A DNA stretch of 64,000 nt. Origin: a virus. The notes under the pieces are model-generated. The model saw only the letters and a list, made by a program, of their open reading frames with translations, made no database searches and was not told where the DNA came from. How positions within the stretch are numbered: the stretch's first letter is position 1; every line of letters begins with the position of its first letter. The stretch spans positions 11,962-75,961 of IMG/VR virus record IMGVR_UViG_3300050821_003659. One strand, 5' to 3'. The position numbers were made by a program, and so were the translations under genes. Shown in pieces: positions 15,402 to 36,208 of this stretch.

Positions 15402-16067
15402 ATGGCGATGACAGGCGACATCAAATCGTACATGCAGCAGTGGCTCCAAACGGCAACGAAGGGCGATGTCGTCGTAGACTACGCGTGGTTTCAAGACCGC
15501 ATGGAGTTGCGGTGCAAGAAGTGCCACGCGGTGTTCCGCTGCACGCTGCCTGAGAGTCCGACTGAGATTGACTGGTCAATCCAGAAGTGGGTAAAGCAGC
15601 ACGCACCCGGAGGAGAGCACGACACAAAAGAGTTGCACTGTCCTGTCGATCCGATTCCGCTCACTGCGGACTTTCACAAGCTGCCGAGTTTCAATCCGAT
15701 TCCGTTACAGACGGGCGGGCAAACAGGGATCATCGACGCCAGCGAAGCGAAGGCCGCGATCCTGAAAGCCCAGATGGAGACGTACAAAGCTGAGCAGGAA
15801 AAGAAAGACATCGACGGCAAGGTTGAGTGGTTGAAGAAGACGGCGGCACAGAAGGCTGAGGTTGCTGCGGCACAGACTGAGAAGGCGAAGGAACAAGCTC
15901 TTGCGAATCTGCTTCTGATGATGACACAGATGACGCAGAACCCCCAGATCGTCAAGGCGATGAAGCCGCCAGAGGCCGTCCTTCCGAAAGAATGGGAGAC
16001 AACAGTCACGCCGCAACCGAGAATACCGAAGGCCGCGAAGATCGTCACAGGACGGAGGTTCCGATGA
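15402..16067 (+). CDS. Hypothetical protein with CxxC and a GRRFR C-terminus
   Basis: AGGAG RBS; 221 aa. Confidence 0.75.
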   Translation: MAMTGDIKSYMQQWLQTATKGDVVVDYAWFQDRMELRCKKCHAVFRCTLPESPTEIDWSIQKWVKQHAPGGEHDTKELHCPVDPIPLTADFHKLPSFNPIPLQTGGQTGIIDASEAKAAILKAQMETYKAEQEKKDIDGKVEWLKKTAAQKAEVAAAQTEKAKEQALANLLLMMTQMTQNPQIVKAMKPPEAVLPKEWETTVTPQPRIPKAAKIVTGRRFR

Positions 16068-16492
16068 GACTGACCGCACGTGAAAAAGATTCTGACATGT
16101 TCGAGCGGCTGCTGAGAATCAACGACGAGAGTTTCAATCTTGATGAGCGGGCGTCCCGCGAGAAGTTCAAGGCCCTGTTCGATGCGAACGCGGTGTACGT
16201 TGACAGTGCACTGACACCAGCCGCCTTCGCGATAGTCACTGATCGCGGCGGGCCTTATGTCATCGTGATCGCGGTGACGAGCAGTCTGCGGGGTCAGGGC
16301 GTCGGCTCTGCTCTCCTGCGGGAGATCGCAGAGTACAGCCGAGCATGTGGTGAGTACGGCGTGGCTCTGATGTGCAAGATTGACAACTGGCAAGCCCAGA
16401 GACTATACTTGAAAAATGAGTACCGAGTGGTTCGCGTCGTGCCGGGATATTACGGAGCGACAGACGGGCTTCTCATGAGGAGAAAAATATGA
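16064..16492 (+). CDS. GNAT acetyltransferase (RimI-like)
   Basis: IAVTSSLRGQGVGSALL acetyl-CoA motif; NWQAQRLY; GYYG..DGLLM. Confidence 0.9.
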   Translation: MRLTAREKDSDMFERLLRINDESFNLDERASREKFKALFDANAVYVDSALTPAAFAIVTDRGGPYVIVIAVTSSLRGQGVGSALLREIAEYSRACGEYGVALMCKIDNWQAQRLYLKNEYRVVRVVPGYYGATDGLLMRRKI

Positions 16493-17325
16493 CCAACATC
16501 GAATGCACCAAGTGCGGAGACGTAGTCGAAGTCACGGCGGACACCGTCGTGCTGCCTTTCGTTTGCATGTCCTGCGAAGACGCCATCGCGAAGTTCACGC
16601 AGGAGTTCGTTCCGCCCGCCCCCGTCACCGACGAACAGGCCGAGGTTGCCGCGTTCTACGAGAAGATGGCTCCCGAGTCTGAGACGACCGAGCCTGAGGA
16701 AGAGTTCGCGACCGTCGAGAACACGACGCTTCTCATCGCTGACCTTGAGGAGCAGTTGCGTCAGGAGAGAATCCTGTCAGACTCGCTGAAACTCCGCATC
16801 GAAAACGGAGAGGAAAAGAACACTCAACTGCTGATCGAGAAGAATCGTCAGGCTGACACGATCCGTACGCGTGGAGTACAGATCGAGAATCAGGCGAAGA
16901 CCATCGCGTCGTATGAGAACGACATCGACGGGCTGCTCGATAAGCAGGTACGCTCGAACGTCGCCCTCCAGTTCCTGAAGGCCGTTATCTACCAACTCGG
17001 CAAGGCCGGGATGGAACTTCGCAAGGAAGTTGATACGCTGAAGACCAAGGTCGTGAGTGAGCAGCGACGTACGGAGATCGAGAAGATGATCTCGCAGATG
17101 AATGCGTCCTCCGCAAATGGATACGCTTCTCAGGCTGCTGACCTGCGATACGAGATCGACCAGTTGAACGCCGAGATCGATACTCTGAAGCTGAACCTGA
17201 AGTGCACGAAAGAAGAACTAGCGACCGAACGTCGTAAGTCTCTTTGGACGCGGTTCGTAGAGCAGTGGCGTGCAGAGGCGAAGCGTGCTGCTGAAGAGAA
17301 CAAGGACTACTACGGCGAGATATAA
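16489..17325 (+). CDS. Coiled-coil protein with N-terminal Zn ribbon
   Basis: CTKC...CMSC followed by a long heptad region. Confidence 0.75.
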   Translation: MTNIECTKCGDVVEVTADTVVLPFVCMSCEDAIAKFTQEFVPPAPVTDEQAEVAAFYEKMAPESETTEPEEEFATVENTTLLIADLEEQLRQERILSDSLKLRIENGEEKNTQLLIEKNRQADTIRTRGVQIENQAKTIASYENDIDGLLDKQVRSNVALQFLKAVIYQLGKAGMELRKEVDTLKTKVVSEQRRTEIEKMISQMNASSANGYASQAADLRYEIDQLNAEIDTLKLNLKCTKEELATERRKSLWTRFVEQWRAEAKRAAEENKDYYGEI

Positions 17326-17556
17326 ATGACCGACCCCTTCAAGTTTCAACGTGCGTTGTTTCCCGAGATGGAGCCTCGCACGATTGTTGTCTCGAAGGGC
17401 GGCACGCCGCACAGGTGTTACGTCGTCTGGTGCGACAAGATCACAGACGAGATCAGAAAGAGGGTTCGGGGCAAGAACAGTAAGCTGTTCGTCTCGATGC
17501 ACACAAGTCATAGTGAACCAAACGACGAGGAGGTAGCATGGGAATTAAAAATCTAA
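17326..17556 (+). CDS. Hypothetical protein
   Basis: ORF abutting the upstream stop. Confidence 0.55.
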   Translation: MTDPFKFQRALFPEMEPRTIVVSKGGTPHRCYVVWCDKITDEIRKRVRGKNSKLFVSMHTSHSEPNDEEVAWELKI

Positions 17557-18224
17557 TGCTCGTTCTTCTCCTCGTCGCCTCCTCTTTCGCACGCACCAAA
17601 ATGTTTCCTGCAACACATGACTCTGTCCCTGCTGAGAACAGGAGAGCCGAGATGCTGGGTCTGAAGAGGTACGAGACATTGGAGCAAGTCCAACAGGACG
17701 TAGCTTCTCTCAAACTCGTACCTCTCACAGTTCCGACATCGAACAAGTTGCCGTTGAACCGGAGATACGCTCTGCCAGAGACGGTTGCCTTCGTGGAGAA
17801 GTTGGATCATGACTTCTATGAGATGACTGAGCATCGTCTGGTGGTTGACTCCGCAGTTCGTCCGCGTGACGTGCAGAAACGTCTGACACGCCGCAACCGG
17901 AACGCCGCCCCAGCGGATGGGGCAAGAGCATCAAGTCATGAACGTGGCACGACAGTTGATCTCGCCCGCCCCCGTAAAAAGGGCGACCTGCGATGGCTTC
18001 TGCTGCGGCTGGCCTATTACAAGGCACGCGGCGATATTCTGGTCATCGAGGAGCGGGCCTGTATCCACGTCTTTGTCGGAGGGTCGCATGAGTTGCGTCT
18101 ACAAGATTCGCAGGAAGTCGGATGGTCTGTACTCGAAGGGCAAGACCAGCCCCAGTTTCAACAAGGTGGGCAAGACGTGGAGTTCGTGGAGGAATCTCGT
18201 CCTGCACCTCTCCCTTGTCCGTGA
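17538..18224 (+). CDS. Secreted M15-like peptidase (DUF5715-like)
   Basis: Signal peptide; DSAVRP..VQKRL...NRNAA...SSHERGTTVD...CIHV motif. Confidence 0.7.
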   Translation: MGIKNLMLVLLLVASSFARTKMFPATHDSVPAENRRAEMLGLKRYETLEQVQQDVASLKLVPLTVPTSNKLPLNRRYALPETVAFVEKLDHDFYEMTEHRLVVDSAVRPRDVQKRLTRRNRNAAPADGARASSHERGTTVDLARPRKKGDLRWLLLRLAYYKARGDILVIEERACIHVFVGGSHELRLQDSQEVGWSVLEGQDQPQFQQGGQDVEFVEESRPAPLPCP

Positions 18225-18375
18225 CGGTCTGACTCACGTGAAGCCACAGGACAGGCTCCGTGAGGTGTACAACGGCTGCGAGATCGTGGAGTTCAAGGAA
18301 ACGAGCAGCGTGCGGATCGACAGCTTCTTCGCAACATTTTTTGAAGAGAAGAAATCTCGCTTCGAGGGGGACTGA
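18088..18375 (+). CDS. Hypothetical protein
   Basis: GGAGG RBS; MSCVYKIRRKSDGLYSKG. Confidence 0.65.
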   Translation: MSCVYKIRRKSDGLYSKGKTSPSFNKVGKTWSSWRNLVLHLSLVRDGLTHVKPQDRLREVYNGCEIVEFKETSSVRIDSFFATFFEEKKSRFEGD

Positions 18376-18602
18376 TGAGCTATCTCACATTCACGGAGTA
18401 TCCAGCAAAGGGAGTGACGAAACGCTGGACGGTCGCATCGAAGACGGGCGTTGTTCTCGGAGAGGTGAAGTGGTACTCCGCGTGGCGTCGGTACATCTTC
18501 TTTCCGAACGCACTCACGTGTTACGACGCCGACTGTCTGCTCGACATCGTGACGTTTCTCAATTCGCAGATGCAGTGCTATCGCGATCAGAGAACCGTAT
18601 GA
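18375..18602 (+). CDS. Hypothetical protein
   Basis: TGATG overlap; LGEVKWYSAWRRYIFFP. Confidence 0.7.
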   Translation: MSYLTFTEYPAKGVTKRWTVASKTGVVLGEVKWYSAWRRYIFFPNALTCYDADCLLDIVTFLNSQMQCYRDQRTV

Positions 18603-18686
18603 ACCACTGGGAGACACCCGAGGAGTTCCGAAGCTGGTGCCTGAGGATGGCGGCACTGCTCGACAAGAATCTGGAGGAGGCGAAAC

Positions 18687-18920
18687 GTGGAAAGCCAAGT
18701 GACGATCAACGCGGAGCAGTTGTCGAAGACCGCACAGCATCTGCGGACGACACTGTTCGAGATGAGCAAGACAGTCGAGCGGTTCGATAACACGTCCGCC
18801 GCACTGATGCAGTACAGCGAAGGCTTCCTCGAACGTCTGGAAGCGATCATGAAACGAATGGAGAAGATCAATGAGCCAACCATCCACCCCGACGCCGTTC
18901 GCCCCGCTACTTTCCTGTGA
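18687..18920 (+). CDS. Hypothetical protein
   Basis: GTG start after GGAGGAGG. Confidence 0.55.
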   Translation: MESQVTINAEQLSKTAQHLRTTLFEMSKTVERFDNTSAALMQYSEGFLERLEAIMKRMEKINEPTIHPDAVRPATFL

Positions 18921-19248
18921 GATCACGACTGAGACGGTCGTCGCGACTGACGGGCACGAGGAGCATCCCGAGTCGATGCGTCCCCGAGTGTTCCTCACTG
19001 TCGTACAGAACGACAGCCGAGGGGACATCTTTTACGCGAGACATTACGAAGTTCTCGCCACAGGGTATGTGATCCCGTGGCAGACGCTGCCTGAGGGCAA
19101 GTTCGACTATCTGCACTTCTCGGTGCCCACGCTGAAAGCCTTCCGGCTGGCACACGCCAGCAATCCGAGTACGGCATTCTGGAACGGCACGCTGCGTCGG
19201 GTGTACGAATCTGTCGGCCCGAGCATTCCGACACTGGAGATGAAATGA
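18871..19248 (+). CDS. Hypothetical protein
   Basis: GGAG RBS, operon packing. Confidence 0.6.
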   Translation: MSQPSTPTPFAPLLSCEITTETVVATDGHEEHPESMRPRVFLTVVQNDSRGDIFYARHYEVLATGYVIPWQTLPEGKFDYLHFSVPTLKAFRLAHASNPSTAFWNGTLRRVYESVGPSIPTLEMK

Positions 19249-19927
19249 TCCGACATCTGCACATGACGCCGGGGCCGAGCATCGCTGACCCCTGCAACAC
19301 CGCCGTCTTTTACGAGGCACGGTACGCCGACCCGAAGCTGGGTCAGGAGCATAAAATCTGGGGCGGCTGGCGATGCCGTCTGATCCGCTGGCTCGTTCAG
19401 CGGTGGATGCCGACGCCGACCGTCTGGTGGGCTGATCTGAGGAAACGTGAGACTACCGTCACCACCGATCCCCGCTGAAGTGTGGGAGTTCCTGAGGATC
19501 GCAGAGGAGCAAAATGACCGAATCACAGGCGTACAGGATGCTGGGCTGGCCCGCAGGGGGCGGGGAGCCACACAGCGAGAACAGGTTCGTCCTGCCACTG
19601 AGCGGGAGTGAGTCCGAGGACTGGTTCGTCACCCGATGTTACGACTGTCGATGGAGCGGCGTCTCGCTGGGACATATTCTTCCAGAGGGATGTCCGTCGT
19701 GCGGAAAGGCGTGGAGCCATGTCATCGGATAACCGTGTACCAGATAAACCCGAGAACGATCCTCTCGTGATAATGGAGGAGTACGTCGCCGGGGAGTGGA
19801 TCAGGGTGCCGCAGTACCCCCGGCTCCTGCACCCCGTGCACGGGGCCTCCTGCCTGTCGGCTCTCAAGCGGGTGCACAAGTCGAGGAAGTTTCGACTCAC
19901 ACCTGTCCCAGAAGAGGACATACCGTT

Positions 19928-20338
19928 TTGAGCATCGACAGCGTAGTCGCCAATCTCGCGGCCCAACTGTCGCACAGAGCCGCCGTGTCGATGAACGCCA
20001 TCCTCGCTGGCATGGCTCCGAGCCAGAAGGAACTTTTCACCCTCCCGGCTCCGGGCATCTGGGTTTACAAAGTAGAGTACCGAGTCTGGCTCCGATACGC
20101 GGACGGGCGAGAGTGCTGGTCGCCAGACTGGTACCACGCTGTGAACGGCAGAACCTGCCTCGCGTGGTACAAGCGACGGGCCGACGCGGAGAAGGCTCTC
20201 GTGCGTCACAGGGCACGGCATTCGTGCTGGGGAGTCAAAGAGTACCGCGTGCGTGCTGAGACGCACCCCGAGTATCCCTACCGCCGCGATCTCGATCCCC
20301 GAGCCAAGAACATCAACAGACTACGATCTATAAAGTAA
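19928..20338 (+). CDS. Hypothetical protein (last gene before the non-coding region)
   Basis: Open frame ending just before a terminator; start uncertain. Confidence 0.5.
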   Translation: MSIDSVVANLAAQLSHRAAVSMNAILAGMAPSQKELFTLPAPGIWVYKVEYRVWLRYADGRECWSPDWYHAVNGRTCLAWYKRRADAEKALVRHRARHSCWGVKEYRVRAETHPEYPYRRDLDPRAKNINRLRSIK

Positions 20339-20342
20339 ACTC

Positions 20343-20377
20343 GCCACGTACCCGTGATTCGGGGCGTGGCGTTTTTG
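20343..20377 (+). terminator. Rho-independent terminator
   Basis: CGCCACG/CGTGGCG stem followed by TTTTT. Confidence 0.75.
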
Positions 20378-20379
20378 CG

Positions 20380-21700
20380 TTTCCCTTCCTGCCCCGGTGC
20401 CGCCCCGATCCCTCCCGCTGAGCACGGCGTTCCAGATTCGCGAATACGGAATGCAGCTTAGCCAGAGGGGGGTCGCAGGGGAGGTAACCTCCTATGAAAA
20501 ACCATATATGCAGGGGGACTCAGTCAGGGAGTCCCTTAGGGGAGGTATGAAAAATAATATCCCCCCATGCGTCGAGTAGAGGGTCAGGAGTCCCTTGGCT
20601 AAGCCAAGCTCCGCTGGCCCGCGAGGGGTGCCGGGACTCCCCCGCCGCCGCCCTCGGCCCTAAGTACTGACCCCCTGTCAACGCTCTGATTCCAAAGAGT
20701 TTAGTACCCCTGACCCTGTACCCCTTTCGCTCTGTGTTCTCCCCGAGCTAACTCGTTTACAATGTGCAGTTACAGCGGTGGGACGCCACGCGAGTGCAGA
20801 ATGTAGCGTAAGGCGTGTAGAATCACAGCGTTACAGCGTCCTGCACCAATATAGTGTTTTGGTGCACGGCATTTCAGCGTCCCGCGTCCCACTTCAGAGG
20901 GGCGAAGGGATTGCGTAGCCAAACCGACCAGTTGGTTGTGACGCTGGGACACAGCGAAGGGAAAGCGATGATATGGTTTATCATAGATCGCTACTGTTTC
21001 TCATAGGCGAATGGAATGCGTAAGGCTGTGTACTGTGTAAACGGTACAGCGAATGAACAGCGAATGCTGTAACCCTGCGTGTGGTGTATTGTGTACAGTG
21101 GCTGCGTGCTGTGCTCTGCGTGTGGCGTGCAGTGCTTCGCCTTTGGTTCTCCCTTGAGTGTATTCCTATCAGAGTCCTTAGCGTCTGCCCGATTTGCCCG
21201 AGTTCGCCGTGCGTTCGCCCTGCGTTGGTTTGTATCAGGTATTGGCCCGCCCAGTGACTATATACGATACAGATCGATCAGGCGAAGAGAATGCGAAGGT
21301 CTGCATGAAACGTTCCTGACGCTGGGGCGAACATAGAGCGAATGTGACGTATACATCACATTTGACTGATGAGTACACAGTTGCAATTCTGTTATCTAAT
21401 CAGTAACGCATGCGTGTGTCATATCGTGCACACGCGGTGCCGTGCGTGGGTGAGCTATGACGCGTTACGCTTCGCCCTGCGTTCGCCCTGCACTGTCGTG
21501 CCTTGACAGTCTCTGGTCTGTCTGCCTGTCGGTGCAATCGATTGGCCCGATTCGTTCAATTTTCGCCTCTGTTCACGGTGCGTGAACGTCACCAAATGTT
21601 GAACAGTTGGTGACAGTCAATAGCACGAAAGTGTGTACATGGTACATGCACCTTCGTGCCATTGCACGCAATACAAGGAAGAGTAGAATAGTCACAGTAA
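20380..21700. other. Approx. 1.3-kb non-coding region (possible genome terminus, packaging or control region)
   Basis: No convincing ORF; GAGTCCC/GGGACTC repeats, TTCGCCCTGC and ATTGGCCCG repeats. Confidence 0.5.
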
Positions 21701-22297: not shown

Positions 22298-22473
22298 TGA
22301 AACGCATGTGGATCAATCAGCCGTCAACTCTTCAGCCGCATCACAGCATGCACGGCGTGAACGTGCTAGCGTGCGAGGAACGTCCGGGCACAATGCGTGT
22401 TTACTTTCTGTCTGGCAACGTGGTCAGTCAGGAAATGTTTTCTAACTGTCTCTCACTTGGATGGAGGAGCTAA
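22297..22473 (+). CDS. Small hypothetical protein
   Basis: TAATG overlaps on both sides. Confidence 0.65.
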   Translation: MKRMWINQPSTLQPHHSMHGVNVLACEERPGTMRVYFLSGNVVSQEMFSNCLSLGWRS

Positions 22474-22808
22474 TGACAGGTATAACGCAGGGTCGCAGGT
22501 TTCGCTCAACGTCGCCGTTCACGTTCAAGCCGCAGGTCACGCGTCAACGCACGCCAGCACAGCAACTGCAAGCCGACACGCGTCGTGTGAACCGTGCACT
22601 GCACGCGTTTGGCAACTATCACGACTTCATCCCGCTCGATGCCGTCAACATCGAGTTGGCGGATGCTGGCTTTGATGAGTTGCCAGACATGCTGCTGTGC
22701 GGTGCACAAGGATCGATCAATGAGTCTGTCGGTCGCAACCGCTGGCTCTCGCTCACGTGGTACAAAATGGAATCCGGTCGCTATGAGGTGGTGGCTTATG
22801 TCTCCTAA
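22473..22808 (+). CDS. Hypothetical protein with N-terminal ITQGRRFR
   Basis: GGAGGAG RBS. Confidence 0.75.
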   Translation: MTGITQGRRFRSTSPFTFKPQVTRQRTPAQQLQADTRRVNRALHAFGNYHDFIPLDAVNIELADAGFDELPDMLLCGAQGSINESVGRNRWLSLTWYKMESGRYEVVAYVS

Positions 22809-23015
22809 CATCGAAGTGCACGTCACGCTGTTCGACACTCAGGTCGCTATGCTGCATGCACTGCATCGCAGCGATCCGTTTCAGAACACCAACTCACAGG
22901 GCGTCGTATACGCTGAGACGCCCTGCTGGTCGCTGCTGGCAATGCCTGTGCCTGAACTGCACAGTGCAGAGACGCAGGAACGTCGCAGACTTCAACGCAT
23001 CACATGGAGGGCACG

Positions 23016-25778: not shown

Positions 25779-26168
25779 GTGCTGAGCAAACATCGCAGAC
25801 AGATGTCACCCGCTGAGATACGATTCGCGGAGACTACGGTTCACGCAGTGGACACGTGGTGCTTCGACAACGATCACCTGCTACAACGCATGCAGCAGAA
25901 GCAGATCAGCAAGAAGGACGCGGTACTCGCTGCGAAGTACGGCGAAGTCATCCGCGTTCAAGACGACGGTCGCGTGGTAATGCGGCTGATGCGACCAACG
26001 CAGCCGTTCGCGACTGACAAGGTCGGCACCGTCGTTTGCGTCTCGCTGCTCGACAAGACAATCGTCACCGCATGGCACAATGACCCGAAAGACAATCACA
26101 TGTCTGCGGGCTTGGATGCGTACACTTGGCAGGTCAACGTCATCGAATATCTGAGGAGCATACAATGA
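25779..26168 (+). CDS. DUF4258-like protein
   Basis: HLLQRMQQKQISKKD...GEVI...VVCVS....IVTAW pattern; GTG start after GGAG. Confidence 0.55.
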   Translation: MLSKHRRQMSPAEIRFAETTVHAVDTWCFDNDHLLQRMQQKQISKKDAVLAAKYGEVIRVQDDGRVVMRLMRPTQPFATDKVGTVVCVSLLDKTIVTAWHNDPKDNHMSAGLDAYTWQVNVIEYLRSIQ

Positions 26169-27718
26169 AAACTTTCATCGAGTTGTTCACCGACGCCCGT
26201 GCGGTATCGACGCCGTCAGTCGCTATCAAGACCTTCGACGCAACGTCTAGCATCCTCGCTGTGCAGAACAGCATGTCCCCTGAGGAAGCTGAGTTGACGC
26301 CGTTCATCACGTGGGACGCGATACACGGTCTGCGTGGTCTGACTGACGCGGGCACCGAAGCACTCGCTACGATGTGCAACGATGCCAGCGTGCCTGAGGT
26401 TGGTATCTCATGCGATCTGCCCACCGCACTCGGCATCCTCGAACGTGCGAAGCAGGATGTCATCGCCTTCATCCACAATCCACAGTTGGTGTGGAACGAA
26501 GCGAAGTCGGTCGTGCAAGGGTACGCGAACCTTCGCAACGACTACAAGGCACGCGGCAACATGGTCGTCACACTCTTCGGAGTTGGCGACACGATGCCCA
26601 TCGAACTCCAGCAAGACACGCTGGTGCTCGAACACCCACTGCCCACGCGTGACGAACTCGCGAAGATCGTGCGAGAGACGTACGCGTACGCATACAACAG
26701 CGACCCCAAGAAGTACAAGGCGTGCAAGACAGTCGATGAGACGGTCGTTGCACTCGCGGTCGATGCACTGATCGGTCTGCCAGCGTTCCCTGCTGAGCAG
26801 AGCACAGCGATGTGCCTGAACAAAGAGTCTGGCGTGCTCGACATCGTCACACTCTGGGATCGCAAGAAGACAATCGTCGGACAACGCAAGGGCTTGACCT
26901 ACCGCACAGGCGGGCTGAAGCTGCACGACCTGTACGGCGTCGAATCGTTCAAGACCTACGGCAAGCGGCTGATGTCTGGCAGCAAGCCTCCGACAGTCAT
27001 CCTGAGAATGGACGAGATACAACGTCAACTCTCAGGCAACGATACAGACTCAAGCGGCGTCAAGGGTGACCTGCTTGGTGAGTGGCTGACGTGGATCAAC
27101 GACCACGACATCTACTGCACTCTGCTCCTCGGCGTTCCGGGCAGCAGCAAGTCACACAGCATCGACTGCATCGCTGGTGAGTACGGCAAGCCTGTGATCG
27201 ACTACTCGATCTCACGCATGCAAGACTCGCTGGTCGGCAACAGCAACAAGAACATGACGGTCGCCAACAGCACCGTGGACTCGATCAGCGACAAGAACGT
27301 ATGGCTTGTAGCTACGGCGAACAAGCTGGACGGTCTGCCGCCTGAGTTGCTCTCTCGCTTCGCGGACATCTTCTTCTTCGATGCACCGGACGCGGATGAG
27401 TTGGCTGGCATCATGAACCTGAAGCTGGAGGCATACAAACTCGACACGACTCAGCCGCATCCTGACATGACGGGCTGGACTGGTCGTGACGTGAAGAACT
27501 GTGCTGTGAAAGCACAGCGTATGAACTCCACCGTTGTCGAGTGCGGCGAGTACATCATCCCACTGATGACATCGCAGAAGGAAGCGATGGACAAGTTGAG
27601 GCACGATGCTGCTGACCGCTTCCTCAGTGCTTCGAAGCCCGGAGTATACAAGTACACCGAGCCGACAGTGAAGCACACCGCGACCGTGAAGATCACGGAA
27701 GGTCGCAAGATGCGGTAG
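26165..27718 (+). CDS. Ycf46-like AAA+ ATPase with rearranged motif order
   Basis: ILRMDE, LLLGVPGSSKS, VATANKLDGLPPELLSRF..IFFFDAP and GWTGRDV motifs. Confidence 0.85.
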   Translation: MKTFIELFTDARAVSTPSVAIKTFDATSSILAVQNSMSPEEAELTPFITWDAIHGLRGLTDAGTEALATMCNDASVPEVGISCDLPTALGILERAKQDVIAFIHNPQLVWNEAKSVVQGYANLRNDYKARGNMVVTLFGVGDTMPIELQQDTLVLEHPLPTRDELAKIVRETYAYAYNSDPKKYKACKTVDETVVALAVDALIGLPAFPAEQSTAMCLNKESGVLDIVTLWDRKKTIVGQRKGLTYRTGGLKLHDLYGVESFKTYGKRLMSGSKPPTVILRMDEIQRQLSGNDTDSSGVKGDLLGEWLTWINDHDIYCTLLLGVPGSSKSHSIDCIAGEYGKPVIDYSISRMQDSLVGNSNKNMTVANSTVDSISDKNVWLVATANKLDGLPPELLSRFADIFFFDAPDADELAGIMNLKLEAYKLDTTQPHPDMTGWTGRDVKNCAVKAQRMNSTVVECGEYIIPLMTSQKEAMDKLRHDAADRFLSASKPGVYKYTEPTVKHTATVKITEGRKMR

Positions 27719-27859: not shown

Positions 27860-28789
27860 ATGGCGTCACCAGCACCTGCTCTCTCAACTCTGACCACCGA
27901 CGTAGCGAAACTCGACCTGAGCAAGACTGAGGACTGCGTCTTCATCACGACCCACTTCACGATGGGCATCGGTCGCATGAAGCAGATCACCAACCTGAAC
28001 GTCATCACCGACGCAGACCAGAGCCAGTTGCGTCACCAGAAGAAACTGATCGACTCTCCTGAACTCGAAGAGATCAGAAGCCAAGACGGTTTCCTCAAGC
28101 GTTACCTCGACAGCAAGATGTGCCGCTACTCTGAGTCCACTGGGTTTCTGCCACACGTGTTCCTGAAAGAAGTTGACCGTGCGATCATCGCGTACCAGAC
28201 CATCCGGCGTCCGAAGCTGGTGCAGAAGTTCATGGAGAAGTACCGAGCACTCGAAGCGATGGACTTCGCACCGCTGAAGGCTGCACTCGGTTCGCACTTC
28301 AACCGCAGCGACTATCCATCGAGCGAGATCGTAGAGCGTGGCTTCGACTTCACGTTCTACTACCGTCCGGTTGGCAAGGTAAACCTCGAAGGCATCAGCG
28401 ATGTCATCATCGCACGCGAAGCCGAAAAGGAACAGGCCATCCGCCTCGCAGCCGTCACAGAGTGGCGTGACGCACTGCGGTTGGCTGGTGCAGAGATGGT
28501 CGATGCACTCTTCGACATGCTCAAACCTGAGGCTGGCAAGACGAAGAAGCTGTACGGTTGCCACGTCGAAAAGTTGCAAGAGTTCCTCGCGACGTTGCCT
28601 GACCGTGACCTAGCGAACGACACAGACTTCACCAAGAACATGAACGTGGTGAAGGCTGCACTCGAAGGCGTCACCATCGACAGACTGCGAGAGAGCAAGA
28701 GCCTCCAGCAGTACGTTGCTGACAAGGTCGCCACGGTTCGCGAGGACATCAAGAACCTGACAATCGTCTCCGGTCGTCGCTTCCGGTAG
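27860..28789 (+). CDS. DUF3150-like protein
   Basis: KKLID...LGSHFNRSDYPS pattern recalled from phage proteins adjacent to AAA ATPases. Confidence 0.55.
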   Translation: MASPAPALSTLTTDVAKLDLSKTEDCVFITTHFTMGIGRMKQITNLNVITDADQSQLRHQKKLIDSPELEEIRSQDGFLKRYLDSKMCRYSESTGFLPHVFLKEVDRAIIAYQTIRRPKLVQKFMEKYRALEAMDFAPLKAALGSHFNRSDYPSSEIVERGFDFTFYYRPVGKVNLEGISDVIIAREAEKEQAIRLAAVTEWRDALRLAGAEMVDALFDMLKPEAGKTKKLYGCHVEKLQEFLATLPDRDLANDTDFTKNMNVVKAALEGVTIDRLRESKSLQQYVADKVATVREDIKNLTIVSGRRFR

Positions 28790-28844: not shown

Positions 28845-29261
28845 ATGGACAAACCATTCGCACCAACGCCGCAGAAGATCGTGACCATCACCATCGACGA
28901 GAACGGCGACCAAGTCTTTCTGAAGACCGACTCCGCTGATGTGTTTCTCGAACAGGGCGAAGTCATCACACGTCGTGCATCGCACGTTGAACCCGCCGAC
29001 TTCTGGCGGCGTCTGGCGTTCAGTGTACTTCGTAAACTCACACCCGACACGAGCCGCATCGCAGCGTGGACACGCACATGGAACTGCCTCTGGCGTGTGA
29101 ACACGAAGCCTGTCGGTGGCCCGATACTCACGCACTTCCATGTGAAGCCCGAGACGCAGTCGCTGATGTGGGACGCCATCGCGTGGTTCCCCAACAGGCA
29201 GGATGCAATCGATGCTGAGGTTCAGTTTCTGAATCGCTGGTTCGCTGAGAGGACAATCTAA
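28845..29261 (+). CDS. Conserved AAA-module accessory protein
   Basis: ITIDENG...RRASHVEP...RQDAIDAEVQFL. Confidence 0.65.
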   Translation: MDKPFAPTPQKIVTITIDENGDQVFLKTDSADVFLEQGEVITRRASHVEPADFWRRLAFSVLRKLTPDTSRIAAWTRTWNCLWRVNTKPVGGPILTHFHVKPETQSLMWDAIAWFPNRQDAIDAEVQFLNRWFAERTI

Positions 29262-29668
29262 TGAGTGCATACCACACGCAGAAGACGCAGTACAAAGATC
29301 GCGACTGTCTAGTGAAGGCCCTGAACGATCAAGGCTACACGACAGTCGAAGTGCATGAAGTCGCGACGAACCTGTACGGTTATCACGGTGACATGCGTTC
29401 GCAGAAGGCCAACGTCATCGTCCGCCGTCAGTACGTTGGATGTGCAGCGAACGACCTTGGCTTCGTGAAGGCTGAAGACGGCACGTACAGTGCAATCGTC
29501 TCTCAGTTCGACAGCGGCAAGCATGACGCGGGCTGGTTCAAGGGGCTGAAGAAGTCCTACACCGAAGCACGCGACATGAAGACCGCAGCGGCACAGGGTT
29601 TCAAGTTCCTCGGCAAGAAGATCGTCGGGGGCAAAGTTCAACTCCAGTTCGCAGACACGAGGAGCTAA
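29261..29668 (+). CDS. DUF1257 (Ycf35-like) protein
   Basis: MSAYHTQKTQYKDRDCLVKAL...LYGYHGD...NDLGF. Confidence 0.8.
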   Translation: MSAYHTQKTQYKDRDCLVKALNDQGYTTVEVHEVATNLYGYHGDMRSQKANVIVRRQYVGCAANDLGFVKAEDGTYSAIVSQFDSGKHDAGWFKGLKKSYTEARDMKTAAAQGFKFLGKKIVGGKVQLQFADTRS

Positions 29669-29669
29669 C

Positions 29670-29861
29670 ATGGCACTCAAGATAATCACCATCACCATCG
29701 ATGAAGAGGGCGACCAGACGGTCGATCTCACTGGCTACCACGGCAAAGGCTGCGACGCCGTCGCTGATGTCTTCGGTCGAGCACTCGGAGAGACGACCAA
29801 GGTCACTCACAAGCCTGAGTTTAACAAGCCAGCGATCAACAAGAACCTGCTAAGACACTAG
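29670..29861 (+). CDS. DUF2997 protein
   Basis: ITITIDEEG...GYHGKGC...ALG...HKPEF. Confidence 0.8.
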   Translation: MALKIITITIDEEGDQTVDLTGYHGKGCDAVADVFGRALGETTKVTHKPEFNKPAINKNLLRH

Positions 29862-29906: not shown

Positions 29907-30041
29907 ATGAGCAGATACTCTCGCGACTCTGACTACTCGTTTCTGATCTTCTTCGTGTGGCTGGCTGGCGTCGTAGGCACCGTGGCGTTCTGGGGCACAG
30001 TGTTCTATGTCGCGTGGCACTTCCTGAGCAAGTACTGGTAA
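29907..30041 (+). CDS. Small membrane protein
   Basis: 44-aa hydrophobic ORF with GGAGG RBS. Confidence 0.6.
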   Translation: MSRYSRDSDYSFLIFFVWLAGVVGTVAFWGTVFYVAWHFLSKYW

Positions 30042-30048
30042 CCGCTCA

Positions 30049-30152
30049 CGGCGTCGATGGAGGGCAGCAGCATGAGGGCTGCAATGCAGAGGGTGCGGCC
30101 ACACCCCGAGCAAGCGAGTACCGCAAACACTCGCAGCACTCCACCGACGCCG
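30049..30152 (+). ncRNA. Multi-branch structured RNA
   Basis: CGGCGTCG-A-TGGAG/CTCCA-C-CGACGCCG closing stem with three internal hairpins. Confidence 0.55.
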
Positions 30153-30346
30153 CGATTATGGCAAACACACGGATCGTAATCTCAATGCCTGTGGACGCGA
30201 TGAAACGTCTGCAAGAGAAACTGGCAACGATGACACCCGAGCAGATCAATGCCGAGTTCGGCGTTCCGGTTTTGAGCATCACCTACCCTTCGACAATCGA
30301 GTTGGAAGTTGAAGACGAAGTGAACCACGAAACACGAGCAGGTAAG

Positions 30347-30474
30347 CGAGGCTAGTTGCCTCGCACAACACTCGGTGAGCAATGCACTGGTGAGGGAACG
30401 CCGCCAGCAACACGCTGGTTTGCCCCCATATATTCCAAGTGCTAGGCCGAGTGTTGTGTGAGTCAACCCGACTC
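30347..30474 (+). repeat. Structured intergenic element, copy 2
   Basis: Same three-part layout as 25671-25767, with a different but still complementary long stem. Confidence 0.65.
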
Positions 30475-30489
30475 TAAAAGGGAGAACAC

Positions 30490-31047
30490 ATGATAAACAA
30501 ACTCGCAGTAGAGTTTCTGAACGACGCCATCAAGCATCTGCAATCGCAGTCGTACTCTGACTCCGGTCGCGGTCTGTCCTTCCAGCAGTGGTTCAAGACG
30601 CTGGAGAACTCCATCGAAAAACTTCGCGAGGCCAAGAGCCGCGTGCCTCACGTGAAGACGCCCATCGAGAAGGCGACCACGGTGTTCGATGTCGTGGACG
30701 CGACGAACGATGTCGCGGAGTCTGTCGGCACGCTGGTCGTGATCGACATGCAGCGTCTCGAACGCGAGGTGCTGATCGGCAGCATCGCAGATGCGGACGT
30801 GCAGAAACTTCTGCCCTTCGCCAACGTGATCGGTGACGGCGAGAACTTCCGCCACATCATAAACAAGTCCGCGTACGTGGTCGAAACTAACAGCCACGTG
30901 ATCGCAGAGAACGAAACACTCTGCAAGCGTGCGGGCAAGACGTGGGAGACGTACTACGGCAGCGATGCCGTCAGTGTCGCGACCTGCCCCGGTTGCCTTG
31001 CGAAAGGCAAAGCGGTCATCGTCAACCATCTACTCAAGACACTCTGA
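30490..31047 (+). CDS. Hypothetical protein with C-terminal Zn site
   Basis: GGGAG RBS; H...LC...ATCPGC. Confidence 0.75.
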   Translation: MINKLAVEFLNDAIKHLQSQSYSDSGRGLSFQQWFKTLENSIEKLREAKSRVPHVKTPIEKATTVFDVVDATNDVAESVGTLVVIDMQRLEREVLIGSIADADVQKLLPFANVIGDGENFRHIINKSAYVVETNSHVIAENETLCKRAGKTWETYYGSDAVSVATCPGCLAKGKAVIVNHLLKTL

Positions 31048-31071
31048 GGAGGTGATCCTATCTCGGCACAG

Positions 31072-31209
31072 TGCTGCTGTGCCGTCTGCTCTACTCTGTT
31101 CACGCTGACAGCATCGGGCTACCCAACGGGGGCCGACAGTGTGAGCATGGGGCTACTAAACCGCTATCGCAGGACGCTGCGGTGGAGTAGAGCAGACGAG
31201 ACAGCAGCA
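31072..31209 (+). ncRNA. Long-stem structured RNA
   Basis: 9-bp + 14-bp closing helices separated by a GC/AG internal loop. Confidence 0.6.
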
Positions 31210-31222
31210 ACGTCAAAAGTTC

Positions 31223-31312
31223 GGAAGGTTGGGTGAGTGGATGAAACCATCGCTCTGCTAAGGCGACGTACCCGCAAGGGTGCCGTAGGTTCGAATCCTA
31301 CACCTTCCGCCA
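31223..31312 (+). tRNA. tRNA-Ser(GCU)
   Basis: Full cloverleaf, long variable arm, loop CTGCTAA, GCCA end. Confidence 0.95.
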
Positions 31313-31879
31313 AGCGTGTCGGACTATCCGTTGGGACGTTTCTAGAGCCACCCCCAACGGTGGAGAGCCGATATCCAGCAGTCTGCACTGGGGAGTATAA
31401 GAGCGGCGTCATGAACCGTTCGCCCTATCACTGAGACTTCTGGAGTATCTGCTGGTTCCACGGAGGACACATGGAAACAACTTTATTGTTGCTGGCAATC
31501 GCGTTACTTCTAGCGTTCAGGGGGGCATAATGGCAACCGAAGAGAGCAGGGCAATACTTCCGCCAACAATCGCTGGGCTTGACCTTGCCATCACGGTCAC
31601 TCTCGGTCTGCGACGGTGCGGTCACAAGACGCGGCTGGTCGAGCGTGCCATCTGTGGCTTCCCTGTCATCGAAGTTCTGGCAACTCCACCGCCGCGACCG
31701 ACGCGTGCGGAACGGGGGTGCAACCTTGGACTGTGACACGATCCCCGAGTACGTGCTGAGGCTGTGGAAGCTGATGGAACCCCCACGCAGCCTCAGCTTG
31801 AACGCGGCGAAGGCGGTTGTCAACGCCGCGATGTACGGTGTAGGATGTATCGAAGGCAAAGTGAGAGAGGAGCAACAAC

Positions 31880-32116
31880 GTGTCGAAGAAAACGCTCGAC
31901 GTGATCTTCGTTGAATATCTGAAAGAGCAGGTTGAGGATGCGAAGGCTGAGTACGTGGGCATCCAAGAGTGCGAGGGTGTTGGATACGATCTCGTCCTCT
32001 TCAACTCCCCCAAGACGGGCAGCACGCTAGCCGTCAAATCAAATGTCGATGACGTGCGTGACGCAGTCGCCAAGCGTCTCGCCGCTCACGACAGGGACTG
32101 GAAGAAACATGGATAA
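31880..32116 (+). CDS. Hypothetical protein
   Basis: GAGGAG RBS with GTG start. Confidence 0.65.
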   Translation: MSKKTLDVIFVEYLKEQVEDAKAEYVGIQECEGVGYDLVLFNSPKTGSTLAVKSNVDDVRDAVAKRLAAHDRDWKKHG

Positions 32117-32423
32117 CCAGTGGGGAGTGGGCGTGCCTGACTCAGCGATCATCATGCTTGCCAGACTGATGCTCACACGCATCAAGCTGAAGGGCATGAA
32201 GGTCACGACGAGACAGGACGCCATCGCGATCATCAAGGGGCTACGACCCGCAGTGAGCAAGGACACTCCGCTCAGTGCCGTCGTGAAGCCTGTGACTGAC
32301 AAGCCTGTCGTGGAAGGCAGGTGCTCGTCCTGCGGCAAGCCGTTGCTGAGGGGTTCCCTCTGTCGTACGGTCTGGACGATGCACGACGGGGAGCACATCA
32401 GATGTCCGGGCGGGAAAATATAA
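32109..32423 (+). CDS. Hypothetical protein
   Basis: Operon packing; CSSC motif. Confidence 0.55.
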   Translation: MDNQWGVGVPDSAIIMLARLMLTRIKLKGMKVTTRQDAIAIIKGLRPAVSKDTPLSAVVKPVTDKPVVEGRCSSCGKPLLRGSLCRTVWTMHDGEHIRCPGGKI

Positions 32424-32424
32424 C

Positions 32425-32453
32425 TTGTCAATATAGTTCCGTTATGGCACTAT
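32425..32453 (+). promoter_or_regulatory. Sigma70-type promoter
   Basis: TTGTCA-17-CACTAT; same -10 as 6790 and 42374. Confidence 0.65.
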
Positions 32454-32476
32454 GTTGGCATCTCACGGAGGTGAGC

Positions 32477-32740
32477 ATGCAAGCAGGAAAGACAAAGGCA
32501 GAGCGTAAGGCGTCCCGAGCAGGACGTGTCGCAGATCGTCCGACGAAACGCGGCGAACGTCGTGCAGCGAACACGCTGCGGCGTGTCGAGCAGAAGACCA
32601 CGGCAACACTGAAGGAAGATCGCAAGCGTTCGTACCTCGCGACCTACACCGAGGGCGTGCGTGCGGCAAGGGAACTGAAGAAAACGTTGCGGGCTAACGC
32701 AACCACACCTGCTGAGGCAGCGACCAACGAGACGCGGTAA
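32477..32740 (+). CDS. Small basic protein
   Basis: GGAGGTGA RBS; Arg/Lys-rich. Confidence 0.7.
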   Translation: MQAGKTKAERKASRAGRVADRPTKRGERRAANTLRRVEQKTTATLKEDRKRSYLATYTEGVRAARELKKTLRANATTPAEAATNETR

Positions 32741-32839
32741 GCCGTCTCAACAACGGTGGACGGGGGAGAGGCTGGTGACTCGATGATCCCGTCCGCTGAT
32801 TAAGAAAAACTATACCACTTTTTCTCAACGGAGGATGCG

Positions 32840-33304
32840 ATGGACGGGCAACTCGACAGTGCAGAGCAGCAACTGAAACTGATGCAGGTGATCGAGAAGT
32901 TCGCGGAGACGCGGACGACCGAGAAGTCGGGCCGCATGCACGGACTTGAGACTGTCGAGGGTGCGTACTGCATGTGCGACTCCACGAGCGATGCGTTCAT
33001 CCGCTTCGCACACGCTGCGGGCGTCACGCTCGAACTCTCCCGCTATGACTTCGATCTCGACACGACAATATGTTTGCCTGAGGGCGGCATCCAGTCTCAG
33101 CCGTCACCACGCAACCCCGACCCGACACTTTACCAGCGTGGGAAACATCCGACCGCAGAGTTCCACCGTGCGGGCTGGCACGCAATCGTAGAGACGCCCG
33201 AGTTTTTTCTTGACTTCACGGCACGCCAGTATCATCATGAGGCTTGCTATCCGCACATCATCAGCAAGAAACTAGCAGCGGCAGCAGCCGCAGGAGGCGA
33301 CTGA
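32840..33304 (+). CDS. Papain/transglutaminase-fold-like protein with Ala-rich tail
   Basis: CDSTS...WHAIV...LDFTARQY; ends KKLAAAAAAGGD. Confidence 0.6.
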   Translation: MDGQLDSAEQQLKLMQVIEKFAETRTTEKSGRMHGLETVEGAYCMCDSTSDAFIRFAHAAGVTLELSRYDFDLDTTICLPEGGIQSQPSPRNPDPTLYQRGKHPTAEFHRAGWHAIVETPEFFLDFTARQYHHEACYPHIISKKLAAAAAAGGD

Positions 33305-33716
33305 TGTGTGACGAGACACCGTCTCTGTTCGACATCCTGACTCGATATGAGAACGCGATGGTGCAGGTGCACTACGAGCAGGATGACAGCGAAGCAGCAC
33401 AGACAGAACTGAGCGAGGCTCGACAGGCTCTGCTCACAATCTTACGAGAAGCACTAGGGAGGAACTGACATGTCGTTCGGAGCAAAAGAAGCACGCGAGA
33501 CACGCATCAAGGCAGACCGCAAGCCGCGAGTCAATCTCTGCGGCGACTGCGGCGACGAGATCAGCGAGACAGAACTGCTCTGCGAATCGTGCAGACGAAC
33601 GGGCGAGAATCGGTGGGAGCCAATCCATGATCTGTCCTCGCTGCAAACTCGCTAGGCCCCAGCGTTACGGCGTCATGCTTCGCTGTGGCTGCTGTGGGCG
33701 TGTATACGGTACACAA

Positions 33717-33792
33717 CTCCTGAGTCCCGAAGCCGACGAGGGGCGTGGCTGCAACCCACGTGAAACTGGTGCGAGTCCAGTTCAGGAGTCCA
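33717..33792 (+). tRNA. tRNA-Cys(GCA), atypical
   Basis: CTCCTGA/TCAGGAG acceptor, CGTGG-CTGCAAC-CCACG, T loop TGCGAGT, U73-CCA. Confidence 0.75.
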
Positions 33793-34023
33793 ACATCTGG
33801 CTGGTAGGCACGTTCTTAGGGTCACAATAACGATATTCTAACCCCGCCCTGATGGGTTTAGATCGTGGGTGACCATCGACAAGGGGGTTGCTGTGTAACG
33901 GCACAGGAACCCCCGGAACAGGGAGATCAGCATGAGGGCGTACGCGGTCGAAAGTCTGGTCGTCGTGATCCTGATGGAAGTCATCTGGATCGTGGCGAAA
34001 CTCGAAGCACTGGCGAGGTGAGT

Positions 34024-34662
34024 GTGGGATATAAGCTGACGAACAAAAATCTGGCGGTCACGCGGCTGATGCCTCGCGGCCCAAAGGCAGACAAGCGGCT
34101 GAAGTACATGCACGTCTCGCCGCAGGGCACCGTGTGTCTGACGCCGTCGTATCTCGTGCGAGTGTCGCTGCCGAATGTACCGCAGCCACGTCTGCCTGTC
34201 CTGCACATGCAGAAGCAGATCGATGACGGCGGCTGGATCAATCACGGCACCCAACACGGAGAACCGTTTGACATGGGAGAAGGTCGGCCCGCGACGAACG
34301 GCCCCGAGCACATCGTTCCTCGAATCGATGACGCGATCCCCGTGCCCGAAGATCAGACGGCGACGTTTACCTGCAACGCAGAGACGCTGCTGAAGATGCT
34401 GAAGATCGTGAACGAGGTGAGCGAAGACAGCGAGAAGCCGATACGTCTGCGGCTGTACGGCGGCGAGAACGCGACCGAGCTACGCATCGACTCATACCGT
34501 CAACCGGGAAAGCAGGAGTTCCTCGGCGTGCTCAAGTGCATGGAGTACTACGGGAGCCTGATCCCCGGCGACAAGCCGAGCGACATGCCCGTGAAAGAAG
34601 AACCACCGAAGCAGATGGTCGAGACGCTGAAGGTGAGCACAGGTCGGAGGTTCAGATCGTGA
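34024..34662 (+). CDS. Hypothetical protein (weak resemblance to sliding-clamp domains), GRRFRS tail
   Basis: GAGGTGA RBS; FTCNAETLLKML...PIRLRL pattern. Confidence 0.65.
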   Translation: MGYKLTNKNLAVTRLMPRGPKADKRLKYMHVSPQGTVCLTPSYLVRVSLPNVPQPRLPVLHMQKQIDDGGWINHGTQHGEPFDMGEGRPATNGPEHIVPRIDDAIPVPEDQTATFTCNAETLLKMLKIVNEVSEDSEKPIRLRLYGGENATELRIDSYRQPGKQEFLGVLKCMEYYGSLIPGDKPSDMPVKEEPPKQMVETLKVSTGRRFRS

Positions 34663-35717
34663 AGGGTGAAGAGGACGCGACACTGATCTCGAAACCGACA
34701 GGGAATCTACTGGGCTACTACCACCGCCTGACAGGATTCGCGAAGAAGGGCGAGTCCTGTCTGGATAGCGGCAAGTACATGTGGTCGTACACGAAGTGGT
34801 CGCAGCCTGTGAACATCGCGAACGTGATCGACAACATCGAGAAGTGGCACACGAACGTTCAGGAGTACGCGGTCGTGCGGTGCGTGAACTGCGGAGACTA
34901 TCACGGACAGAGTGACTGGTCTGGCGTGCGGTGCCCGAAGTGTGAGAAGCTGACGTTGAAGGCATCGCTGAAAGACGCGGGCGGATGGCCCCTGCCTGTC
35001 TGTGTGTTGGCGGGCAATCGAGTTCAGTTCACGCAGTACTGCAAAGATAAGGGTGAGAACCCGTACACGACAGACGCGTTCATCGACGGTTCGCAGGGCA
35101 TGATCCACGGGCACCACTTCAGCGGCATCGTGATCGTCGGAACGTTTGAAGAAAAAGTTGACGCCAATGAAATTCTGATGTACGCTAAGGCGAACCTCGA
35201 ACCCGGAGGGCAGATCACCGGAGGAAACGTCGTGAAGCCGAAGCCGCTGCTGGTGGTGAAACCCGTGAACATCTGGAAAGGTGCAGACGGCGTGCCGACA
35301 GCGTCGAAGCCGTTTCTGTTGCCGAAAAAAGAAGAACCGAAGATGAAGAACGGCGAGGTGCGAAAACTTCCCAAGGCGAATAGCCCGATGTGGGTGACGC
35401 AGTGGGCGGCACAGGGCACAGCGAAGACGCCGTACATCGTGAGCAAGAAAGATACGCCGAGTGGAGCAACGACAAGCGAGGGCTGGGCGTGCTCTTGTCC
35501 TAGCTTCACACAAAACTCTCCCCGAGCGGACTGCAAGCACATCTGCTGGGTGAGGAAGTTCGAGAACATCCCGATGAGTGCTGCACCTGTCGCGATGTTG
35601 CCAAAGGAACAGCAGGAGGCGTTCAAGAAGTTTTTGCTGGAGCAAGCGAAGGCGGGCAATCCCGCGATCAAGGTCGAGAAGAAACCGTTCATCACGCAGG
35701 GCAGGAGGTTCCGATGA
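34659..35717 (+). CDS. SWIM zinc-finger protein, GRRFR tail
   Basis: WACSCPSF......CKHI SWIM motif plus an additional CxxC pair. Confidence 0.75.
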   Translation: MKGEEDATLISKPTGNLLGYYHRLTGFAKKGESCLDSGKYMWSYTKWSQPVNIANVIDNIEKWHTNVQEYAVVRCVNCGDYHGQSDWSGVRCPKCEKLTLKASLKDAGGWPLPVCVLAGNRVQFTQYCKDKGENPYTTDAFIDGSQGMIHGHHFSGIVIVGTFEEKVDANEILMYAKANLEPGGQITGGNVVKPKPLLVVKPVNIWKGADGVPTASKPFLLPKKEEPKMKNGEVRKLPKANSPMWVTQWAAQGTAKTPYIVSKKDTPSGATTSEGWACSCPSFTQNSPRADCKHICWVRKFENIPMSAAPVAMLPKEQQEAFKKFLLEQAKAGNPAIKVEKKPFITQGRRFR

Positions 35718-36208
35718 TATCACAGCACAGGACAGACCGAGCGACCGCGTACAACCACATGCCACCACACGAGCGTGCGGCGTCGTTCATCAAATCGAGC
35801 ATCTACTTCTGTGAGCAGAATATCGGCGGTCTGCAATCGGAAATAAAAATGTGGGGCGAACCGGAGATCGTCGCACTCCTCGGTGACGAGACGTGCTACA
35901 TGAAACGTTGTCAGGCCGAGTCTGCTCTCAAAGAGCACGAAGCAGAGAAGCAGAGTTGGGAACATCTCTACGACAAACTCGGAGCGTGCCAGACGTGCAA
36001 CGGGCAAGGATGGCTCTGGCAGTGCGTCTCACAAGACGAATCGATCAAGGTGAAGTGCGACTCGTGCGGAGGGTTAGGCAAGACGTTGGCCGCGACTGCG
36101 GCGGTCAAGACTGTGGAAGCACAGAAGGCAGTTGCCGCAGCCGAAGCCGCGAAGAAGCCGACTCTGCTGGACAACATGAAGACGGCGTTGGGAAGGAAGT
36201 TCCGATGA
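35714..36208 (+). CDS. DnaJ-type Zn-finger protein, GRKFR tail
   Basis: CQTCNGQG...CDSCGGLG. Confidence 0.7.
   Translation: MISQHRTDRATAYNHMPPHERAASFIKSSIYFCEQNIGGLQSEIKMWGEPEIVALLGDETCYMKRCQAESALKEHEAEKQSWEHLYDKLGACQTCNGQGWLWQCVSQDESIKVKCDSCGGLGKTLAATAAVKTVEAQKAVAAAEAAKKPTLLDNMKTALGRKFR

Follow-up and report, generated by a model that had tools for sequence, protein, structure and literature searches.

Tag-bearing proteins in the early region

We analysed a stretch of soil phage DNA of 64,000 nucleotides (the window). It corresponds to positions 11,962 to 75,961 of IMG/VR record IMGVR_UViG_3300050821_003659, one viral contig of 75,961 bp, and in it seven proteins carry the short peptide G-R-[RK]-[FM]-R (the tag) at one of their ends. 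Coordinates refer to the window, while the motif scans cover the whole contig, which is rated about 80% complete and has a G+C content of 56%. Structural genes occupy the minus strand at both contig ends, whereas the replication and early genes, including those for a PrimPol, a family-A polymerase, RecA, a helicase and RNA ligases, are grouped in a long block on the plus strand. The closest cultured relative is Tunturiibacter phage Tunturi_3 (PP885686; L001-L003 in our labelling), whose host is an acidobacterium, Tunturiibacter psychrotolerans X5P2. Between this phage and the contig, the major head proteins are 83% identical and the AAA ATPases 35–36%. The host group of this phage lineage is probably Acidobacteriota. 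About 45 related genomes and contigs, drawn from IMG/VR records and other metagenome contigs, were compared (labels beginning with G or L; the clades G008, G009, G011 and G012 correspond to L072, L073, L075 and L076). Tunturi_3, G008 and G011 are complete genomes, as is G004 (96 kb).

The seven tag-bearing proteins (carriers) are the following.

15402..16067, plus strand: carrier A, 221 amino acids; tail KIVTGRRFR before the stop, tag at 16050-16064; weak zinc-ribbon match, coiled coil and linker
22473..22808, plus strand: carrier B, 111 amino acids; the sole N-terminal copy, MTGITQGRRFRS, tag at 22491-22505
26165..27718, plus strand: Ycf46/p97-like AAA+ ATPase, 517 amino acids; tail KITEGRKMR, tag at 27701-27715, followed by TAG and an intergenic gap
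27860..28789, plus strand: carrier D, 309 amino acids, helical partner of the ATPase module; tail TIVSGRRFR, tag GRRFR at 28772-28786, followed by TAG
34024..34662, plus strand: carrier E, 212 amino acids; tail KVSTGRRFRS, tag GRRFR at 34642-34656, followed by one Ser
34659..35717, plus strand: carrier F, 352 amino acids; tail FITQGRRFR, tag at 35700-35714; zinc ribbons and a SWIM-like finger
35714..36208, plus strand: carrier G, 164 amino acids; tail KTALGRKFR, tag at 36191-36205; DnaJ-type CxxCxGxG zinc finger (weak match)

These sites lie exactly where the initial annotation, made from the letters of the sequence, had placed them. Six-frame translation of the whole contig gave seven matches to GR[RK][FM]R, all on the plus strand and within called genes, and each at the end of a protein, six of them C-terminal and one N-terminal; no further match was found in the six frames of the 75,961 bp. 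Among the 126 predicted proteins the motif was terminal seven times and internal not once, while 2,000 residue shuffles of the same proteins produced on average 0.03 matches in total and never more than one per proteome. Seven terminal copies against a shuffled expectation of 0.004 bear out the suggestion that the motif is enriched at protein ends, and in the related genomes, too, it was nearly never internal in coding frames. Every tag is located within about 12 kb of the AAA module. The carriers had also been described as otherwise dissimilar, in agreement with an all-against-all BLASTP of the seven, in which the tail itself was the sole consistent similarity. Carriers A, B, D and E had no Pfam or PHROGs match even at E = 5, and the SWIM match of carrier F was weak (E = 0.15). 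One further frame, at 22809-22916 just after carrier B, ends in LTGRRIR before its stop, but it lacks a start codon, coincides in part with a better gene call in another frame, and is probably a chance occurrence.

Conservation of the tail in the ATPase and its partner

The tail is a family-wide ending of two proteins, the AAA+ ATPase and carrier D. Among the matches listed, 118 of 120 ATPase homologues with at least 51% identity end in x-R-[RK]-φ-R plus zero to four residues, where φ is the variable hydrophobic position. In carrier D the tail [GST]-R-[RK]-[FI]-R plus zero to three residues is present in 113 of 117 database homologues spanning 40–100% identity, and the four homologues without it look truncated. 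The other C-terminal carriers with homologues behave likewise. Carrier A keeps its tail in five of five homologues despite bodies that are merely 26–40% identical, carrier F in nine of nine, and all seven homologues of carrier E keep G-R-[RK]-[FI]-R, with S, GEGE, GAGE or GVE after it. Free loss of the tail by homologues, which would have spoken against a selected peptide, is therefore not what these families show. Carrier G had no homologue in any related genome retrieved, and for this reason appears to be a recent carrier.

The ATPase matches Pfam AAA and phrog_8638, and the fold of its AlphaFold2 model (predicted local distance difference test score, pLDDT, of 94) matches the two-tier AAA proteins p97, Cdc48, Rix7 and NVL, with no p97-type N domain present in the model. 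Its tail residues 501-517 score 54–65. The model of carrier D is helical, with a pLDDT of 81.5 and values below 50 for the last five residues. Its fold had no Foldseek match in the PDB at E <= 0.001, a wide structure search (VIA) returned generic helical bundles only (Z 7–9), and a viral scan with D alone gave no match. Because the tails have low pLDDT while the bodies are modelled confidently, both tails are likely to be flexible ends. Docking of the tail in cis, on its own protein, was considered and was not seen, the pLDDT being low in the tails of both the ATPase and D.

The initial annotation had noted that two carriers belong to the AAA+ module and had proposed that the tag recruits clients to it. 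The link to the module is stronger than was proposed, in that both the ATPase and D end in the tail throughout their families and the other carriers copy it; the accompanying suggestion of a Clp protein as partner found no support, for reasons given below with the degron hypothesis.

Three untagged members of the module follow carrier D.

28845..29261, plus strand: 'RASHVEP' protein, 138 amino acids; invariant R-A-S-x-V-x-P core in an alignment of 28 sequences
29261..29668, plus strand: DUF1257 (Ycf35-like) protein, 135 amino acids; Pfam PF06868, E = 5e-9
29670..29861, plus strand: DUF2997 protein, 63 amino acids; Pfam PF11211, E = 6e-5, 23.2 bits (cut-off 24.1)

The RASHVEP protein is conserved in G001-G004, G006, G007 and Tunturi_3. 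The DUF1257 alignment contains five invariant acidic residues (D13, E30, D44, D65 and D84), and an ESM Atlas search with this protein returned DUF1257 clusters only. The RASHVEP protein (28845-28920) and DUF2997 (29670-29740) share a starting stretch, K-I-[IV]-T-[IV]-T-I-D-E-x-G-D, that is conserved in both families across relatives; the module may have a second common element in this start.

Selection on the peptide and overlap with translation starts

Four of the seven tails overlap the next start codon as ATGA or GTGA (at 16064, 34659, 35714 and 36205). The stop of carrier A overlaps the ATG of a GNAT acetyltransferase gene, that of carrier E the GTG start of carrier F, and those of carriers F and G the ATG of the gene that follows each. 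The other three tags use different codons and stand either before a stop and an intergenic gap or inside an N-terminus. Both the four double-duty tags and the deviating codons of the remaining three had been pointed out in the initial annotation, and both were found as described. Carriers B and F share the peptide ITQGRRFR, in which five of the eight codons differ, every difference being synonymous.

Codon and overlap counts were taken over 106 distinct tails across the relatives. All six Arg, all four Gly, both Lys and both Phe codons are used, and the φ residue is F in 67 tails, M in 15, V in 10, I in 7, L in 6 and Y in 1. About one third of the tails (37 of 106) double as the start of the next gene. 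The codons for Gly, Arg and Lys are rich in purines, so that the DNA of the tag can act as both a Shine-Dalgarno sequence and the next start: the G-R-R/K codons spell a Shine-Dalgarno string at the right spacing from an ATG made of the last Arg codon and TGA.

These properties raise the question of whether the motif could have arisen, without a function of its own, from a cassette for translational coupling (GGAGG, spacer, ATGA). The overlaps at four of seven window sites and in 37 of 106 tails, and the naturally Shine-Dalgarno-like codons of G-R-R, favour such an origin. However, the best conserved tails, those of the ATPase and D, end at TAG before intergenic gaps, 42 of the 106 tails have neither an overlap nor a Shine-Dalgarno-like string, and synonymous codons vary while the peptide is fixed, as in GGCCGTAAGTTTAGA of L036, which has no Shine-Dalgarno string. 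As the sole cause, the cassette is refuted, and we give this explanation almost no weight. Persistence of the motif at overlapping junctions alone, which would have undone the case for a selected peptide, does not hold either, as 69 of the 106 tails lack an overlap. Together with the conservation in D and the ATPase, this agrees with the earlier proposal of peptide-level selection: judging from codon use and position, selection acts on the peptide and not on the DNA. The coupling cassette may nevertheless explain how the tag spread to new genes, a spread that the overlapping use as a ribosome-binding site may help; a junction cassette of tag, Shine-Dalgarno sequence and ATG would be a simple route by which a new gene could gain a tag. 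Tag DNA that serves as both the ribosome-binding site and the start of the following gene is also a case of overlapping coding.

Variation of the tag between lineages

G004 has GRKIR on each of its five non-ATPase carriers and GRKVR on the ATPase. Two of the GRKIR tags lie off junctions, and the Ile codon is ATT or ATC. In the other multi-tag genomes (G000, G001, G002, L032, L036, L041 and L048) all non-ATPase tags carry F. A change in step on five unrelated proteins of one genome points to a common reader, as would be expected of a shared binding pocket.

More distant relatives carry related but different endings, which were found with a looser pattern. ATPase relatives at 31–43% identity often end in G-R-[RK]-φ-x-φ-[DE], with examples such as GRKISVEE, PRKMDLE, DRKFDLGE and TGRKFRE. 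In G008, G009, G011, G012 and Tunturi_3, the ATPase, D and extra open reading frames (ORFs) share lineage-specific forms of R-x-φ-x-φ-[DE]. The tails are ARTISVED and NRCITFDEE in G008, and RQIIFDE, RSIDLEEIG and RQIILD in G011. In G009 they are RKITLKD, RKIVLE, RRIVLE, RSIRLED and RAIRLEAE, so that R[RK]I[VT]L occurs on three carriers, and in G012 TRAITFEDE (on D), SRAITLRDE (on another ORF) and GRSLSLGED, with RAIT[FL] on two carriers. Tunturi_3 has DGRIIR on gp103 (the ATPase), DRKFHLEGEEF on gp96 and VRKIRLDNE on gp131; gp96, annotated as an 'HNH endonuclease', is a D-like module partner (29% identity). Compared with these endings, the tag of the window's lineage is shortened to G-R-[RK]-φ-R: it mostly ends at the Arg, and the second hydrophobic residue and the acidic residues are usually missing.

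A proposed portable docking tag of an AAA+ module

We propose, with a probability of about 0.6, that the peptide is a portable short linear docking tag of the Ycf46/p97-like AAA+ module. The tag would sit on a flexible end, where a strand-like I/V-x-x leads into G-R-[RK]-φ-R. Its original bearers would be the ATPase and the helical partner D, and at least five further early proteins, among them zinc-ribbon, SWIM-like and DnaJ-finger proteins, would have acquired the same tail in this lineage. All tails would bind one common, phage-encoded site. Through this putative shared site, the ATPase would be joined by its cofactor D and by a varying group of clients in a single remodelling or unfolding machine. 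Candidate readers among the module components are DUF1257, DUF2997, the RASHVEP protein and the body of the ATPase. It is conceivable that a small orphan protein of the module, either DUF2997 or DUF1257 (known from cyanobacteria and plastids as the Ycf35 family), reads the tail as a portable recruitment code of a p97-like unfoldase, although we offer this more specific version tentatively and consider it rather doubtful.

Several observations weigh against the proposal of a docking tag read within the module. The N-terminal tag of carrier B is missing in all four homologues found, and this copy therefore appears to be a one-off of this phage; taken with the carrier G protein, for which homologues are lacking, this suggests that tags are still being gained. 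The step change from F to I rests on one lineage, G004. The φ residue of the ATPase (M, F, I or V) is not matched to that of D in the same genome (V versus F in L047, I versus F in L060), and in the body of the ATPase no alignment column separates I/V tails from F/M tails by a frequency difference above 0.45 or more than phylogeny would. Among the candidate readers, G004-specific changes at conserved columns are limited to G40S in DUF2997 and F34L in the RASHVEP protein, with none in DUF1257, and again concern a single lineage. The distant-clade forms, found by a loose pattern without a shuffle control, are supporting rather than decisive. Finally, the reader could be a host protein.

This last possibility takes its most concrete form in a host hub such as the substrate-binding domain of DnaK/Hsp70, which would be recruited by the tails as a chaperone for the ATPase and its clients. 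The DnaK substrate-binding domain prefers a hydrophobic core with basic flanks, and a tag of the type R/K-φ-R or R-x-φ-x-φ agrees with this in composition. No Hsp70 was found encoded in the contig. However, the tag differs strongly between phage lineages and shifts in step within a genome, which would be unexpected of a conserved host pocket. Such large differences suggest a fast-evolving phage reader rather than a pocket like that of DnaK, and we regard a host hub as unlikely. A localisation role, whether as a capsid-loading signal resembling T4 capsid targeting or encapsulin cargo or as a basic tail with affinity for RNA, DNA or membrane, would account for a terminal, flexible and basic peptide common to unrelated proteins, and encapsulin cargo peptides are C-terminal with basic ends. 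Yet all carriers are found among the replication and early genes of the plus strand and none in the structural block of the opposite strand, the motif is anchored in the ATPase family and not in head proteins, and the existence of lineage-specific forms speaks against a purely electrostatic attachment to nucleic acid. A localisation signal of this kind is thus highly improbable, and the packaging function that the initial annotation had listed among its options has no support, all carriers being early or middle genes on the replication strand.

The remaining alternative, a degron, involves a further gene of the window.

46848-47882: D2-only ClpC/ClpB-like ATPase; pore loop GYLG; a second loop, S-I-G-F-D, aligns with the loop of ClpC that docks on ClpP

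According to this explanation, the phage Clp ATPase and host ClpP would recognise the terminal peptide and clear early proteins on schedule. Degrons of the ClpX type are possible at either protein end, and one class of them is basic (MuA RRKKAI). The phage does encode a ClpC-D2-like ATPase with the two loops listed above, tags and Clp ATPase co-occur in G000, G001, G002, G004, G005 and G007, and the genome with the Clp ATPase also encodes a permuted transfer-messenger RNA (tmRNA). The tails are nevertheless independent of Clp: the complete genomes of Tunturi_3, G008 and G011 have no Clp ATPase, yet they carry related tails on the ATPase, D and other ORFs. Co-occurrence thereby rules out the Clp ATPase as the reader. 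The tail is moreover a family-wide trait of a stable machine component, the AAA+ ATPase, which is an odd site for a degron, and ClpP was not found encoded in the contig. We therefore consider a degron quite improbable, and neither the degron nor the Clp partner suggested in the initial annotation is upheld.

If a small orphan protein of the module does read the tail as a recruitment code, a phage could enrol any protein as a client or cofactor of its unfoldase through about ten terminal residues, which might even be supplied by a gene junction. In that case, a mechanistic role could for the first time be assigned to the genes ycf35 and ycf46 and those of DUF2997, with the tag as a handle on the clients of the machine. 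The proteasome, p97 and sliding clamps gather their partners through short address tags present on unrelated proteins; the docking tag proposed here would do so for a widespread AAA+ module (Ycf46-like ATPase, DUF1257/Ycf35 and DUF2997) for which we found no described function, and the zinc-ribbon, SWIM-like and DnaJ-finger carriers would form a ready list of clients or cofactors. The natural switch from F to I in G004 provides a built-in test of specificity, and the cultured Tunturi_3 and its host, with related tails on gp103, gp96 and gp131, make the idea testable at the bench.

Other RNA and proteostasis genes

The Clp ATPase belongs to a proteostasis cluster at 45534-47882, which also comprises a Cpn10-like protein with an N-terminal extension (45534-46025), a transfer RNA (tRNA) for Asp (46032-46110) and an acidic ORF of 251 amino acids (46083-46838). 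The tmRNA encoded by the phage is circularly permuted (two-piece) and lies at 13156-13441 (Rfam RF04321, 74 bits); its predicted tag peptide, AETKPLAMAAAAGR, ends in Gly-Arg instead of the usual Ala-Ala. Single Thr and Ser tRNAs stand amid the early genes (15068-15143 and 31223-31312), and a minus-strand tRNA cluster at the right end (63235-63922) contains tRNAs for Asn, His, Gly and Met called by ARAGORN, together with one call made by Rfam only.

Comparison with known systems

Our literature search for a GRKFR or GRRFR tail found nothing relevant, and that for DUF1257, DUF2997, Ycf46 and Ycf35 returned gene lists only. Within the literature searched, the characterisation of the tag as undescribed therefore holds.

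Several known terminal signals share some of the properties of the tag. The T4 capsid-targeting sequence is N-terminal, belongs to a late or structural set of proteins and is cut by the prohead protease, whereas six of the seven tags are C-terminal and their carriers are early or replication proteins. The Tat signal is an N-terminal S/T-R-R-x-F-L-K followed by a hydrophobic stretch, while the N-terminal copy on carrier B is followed by STSPFTFKPQVTRQR, which contains no such stretch. Signals read by ClpX (ssrA LAA; MuA RRKKAI) are also terminal, can occupy either end and include a basic class, but the phage tails persist without a Clp ATPase and end a stable ATPase family. The clamp-binding tails of T4 and the acidic tails of T7 gp2.5 and gp4 offer a closer parallel in organisation, as several phage proteins use a terminal peptide to dock on one hub. 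Those tails are acidic or hydrophobic and bind a sliding clamp or DNA polymerase; the tag is basic and tied to an AAA+ module.

Ring ATPases with short C-terminal motifs are comparable in another respect. In the HbYX motif (PAN, Rpt subunits and archaeal Cdc48) and the GQYL motif (mycobacterial Mpa and Bpa), unrelated proteins including a ring ATPase share a very short C-terminal tail with a key hydrophobic residue near its end, by which they attach to one partner. However, a proteasome is not in view for this phage, and HbYX and GQYL present a free carboxylate at a fixed distance, while up to about nine residues can follow the phage motif, as illustrated by the natural extensions GRRFRS, GRKFRTEN, GRKFRGEGE and GRKFRDVPEAQ, and one copy is N-terminal. 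The penultimate Tyr of HbYX also has no counterpart, since the corresponding phage position, which lies between Arg or Lys residues, holds F, M, I or V, and Y in 1 of 106 tails. The motifs of the p97/Cdc48 system (VIM, the Arg-rich VBM and the SHP box, together with the C-terminal tail read by PUB and PUL domains) resemble the present case in the two-tier AAA fold and in the use of short linear motifs, one of them Arg-rich. They differ in that there is no sequence match and that the phage ATPase and its partners bear the same motif. Set beside these systems, the new points are the shortened form of the tail in the Acidobacteria-phage lineage, its conservation in a large sample of homologues, the step change from F to I, the overlap with ribosome-binding sites, the exclusion of Clp and the existence of a tag-bearing cultured relative.

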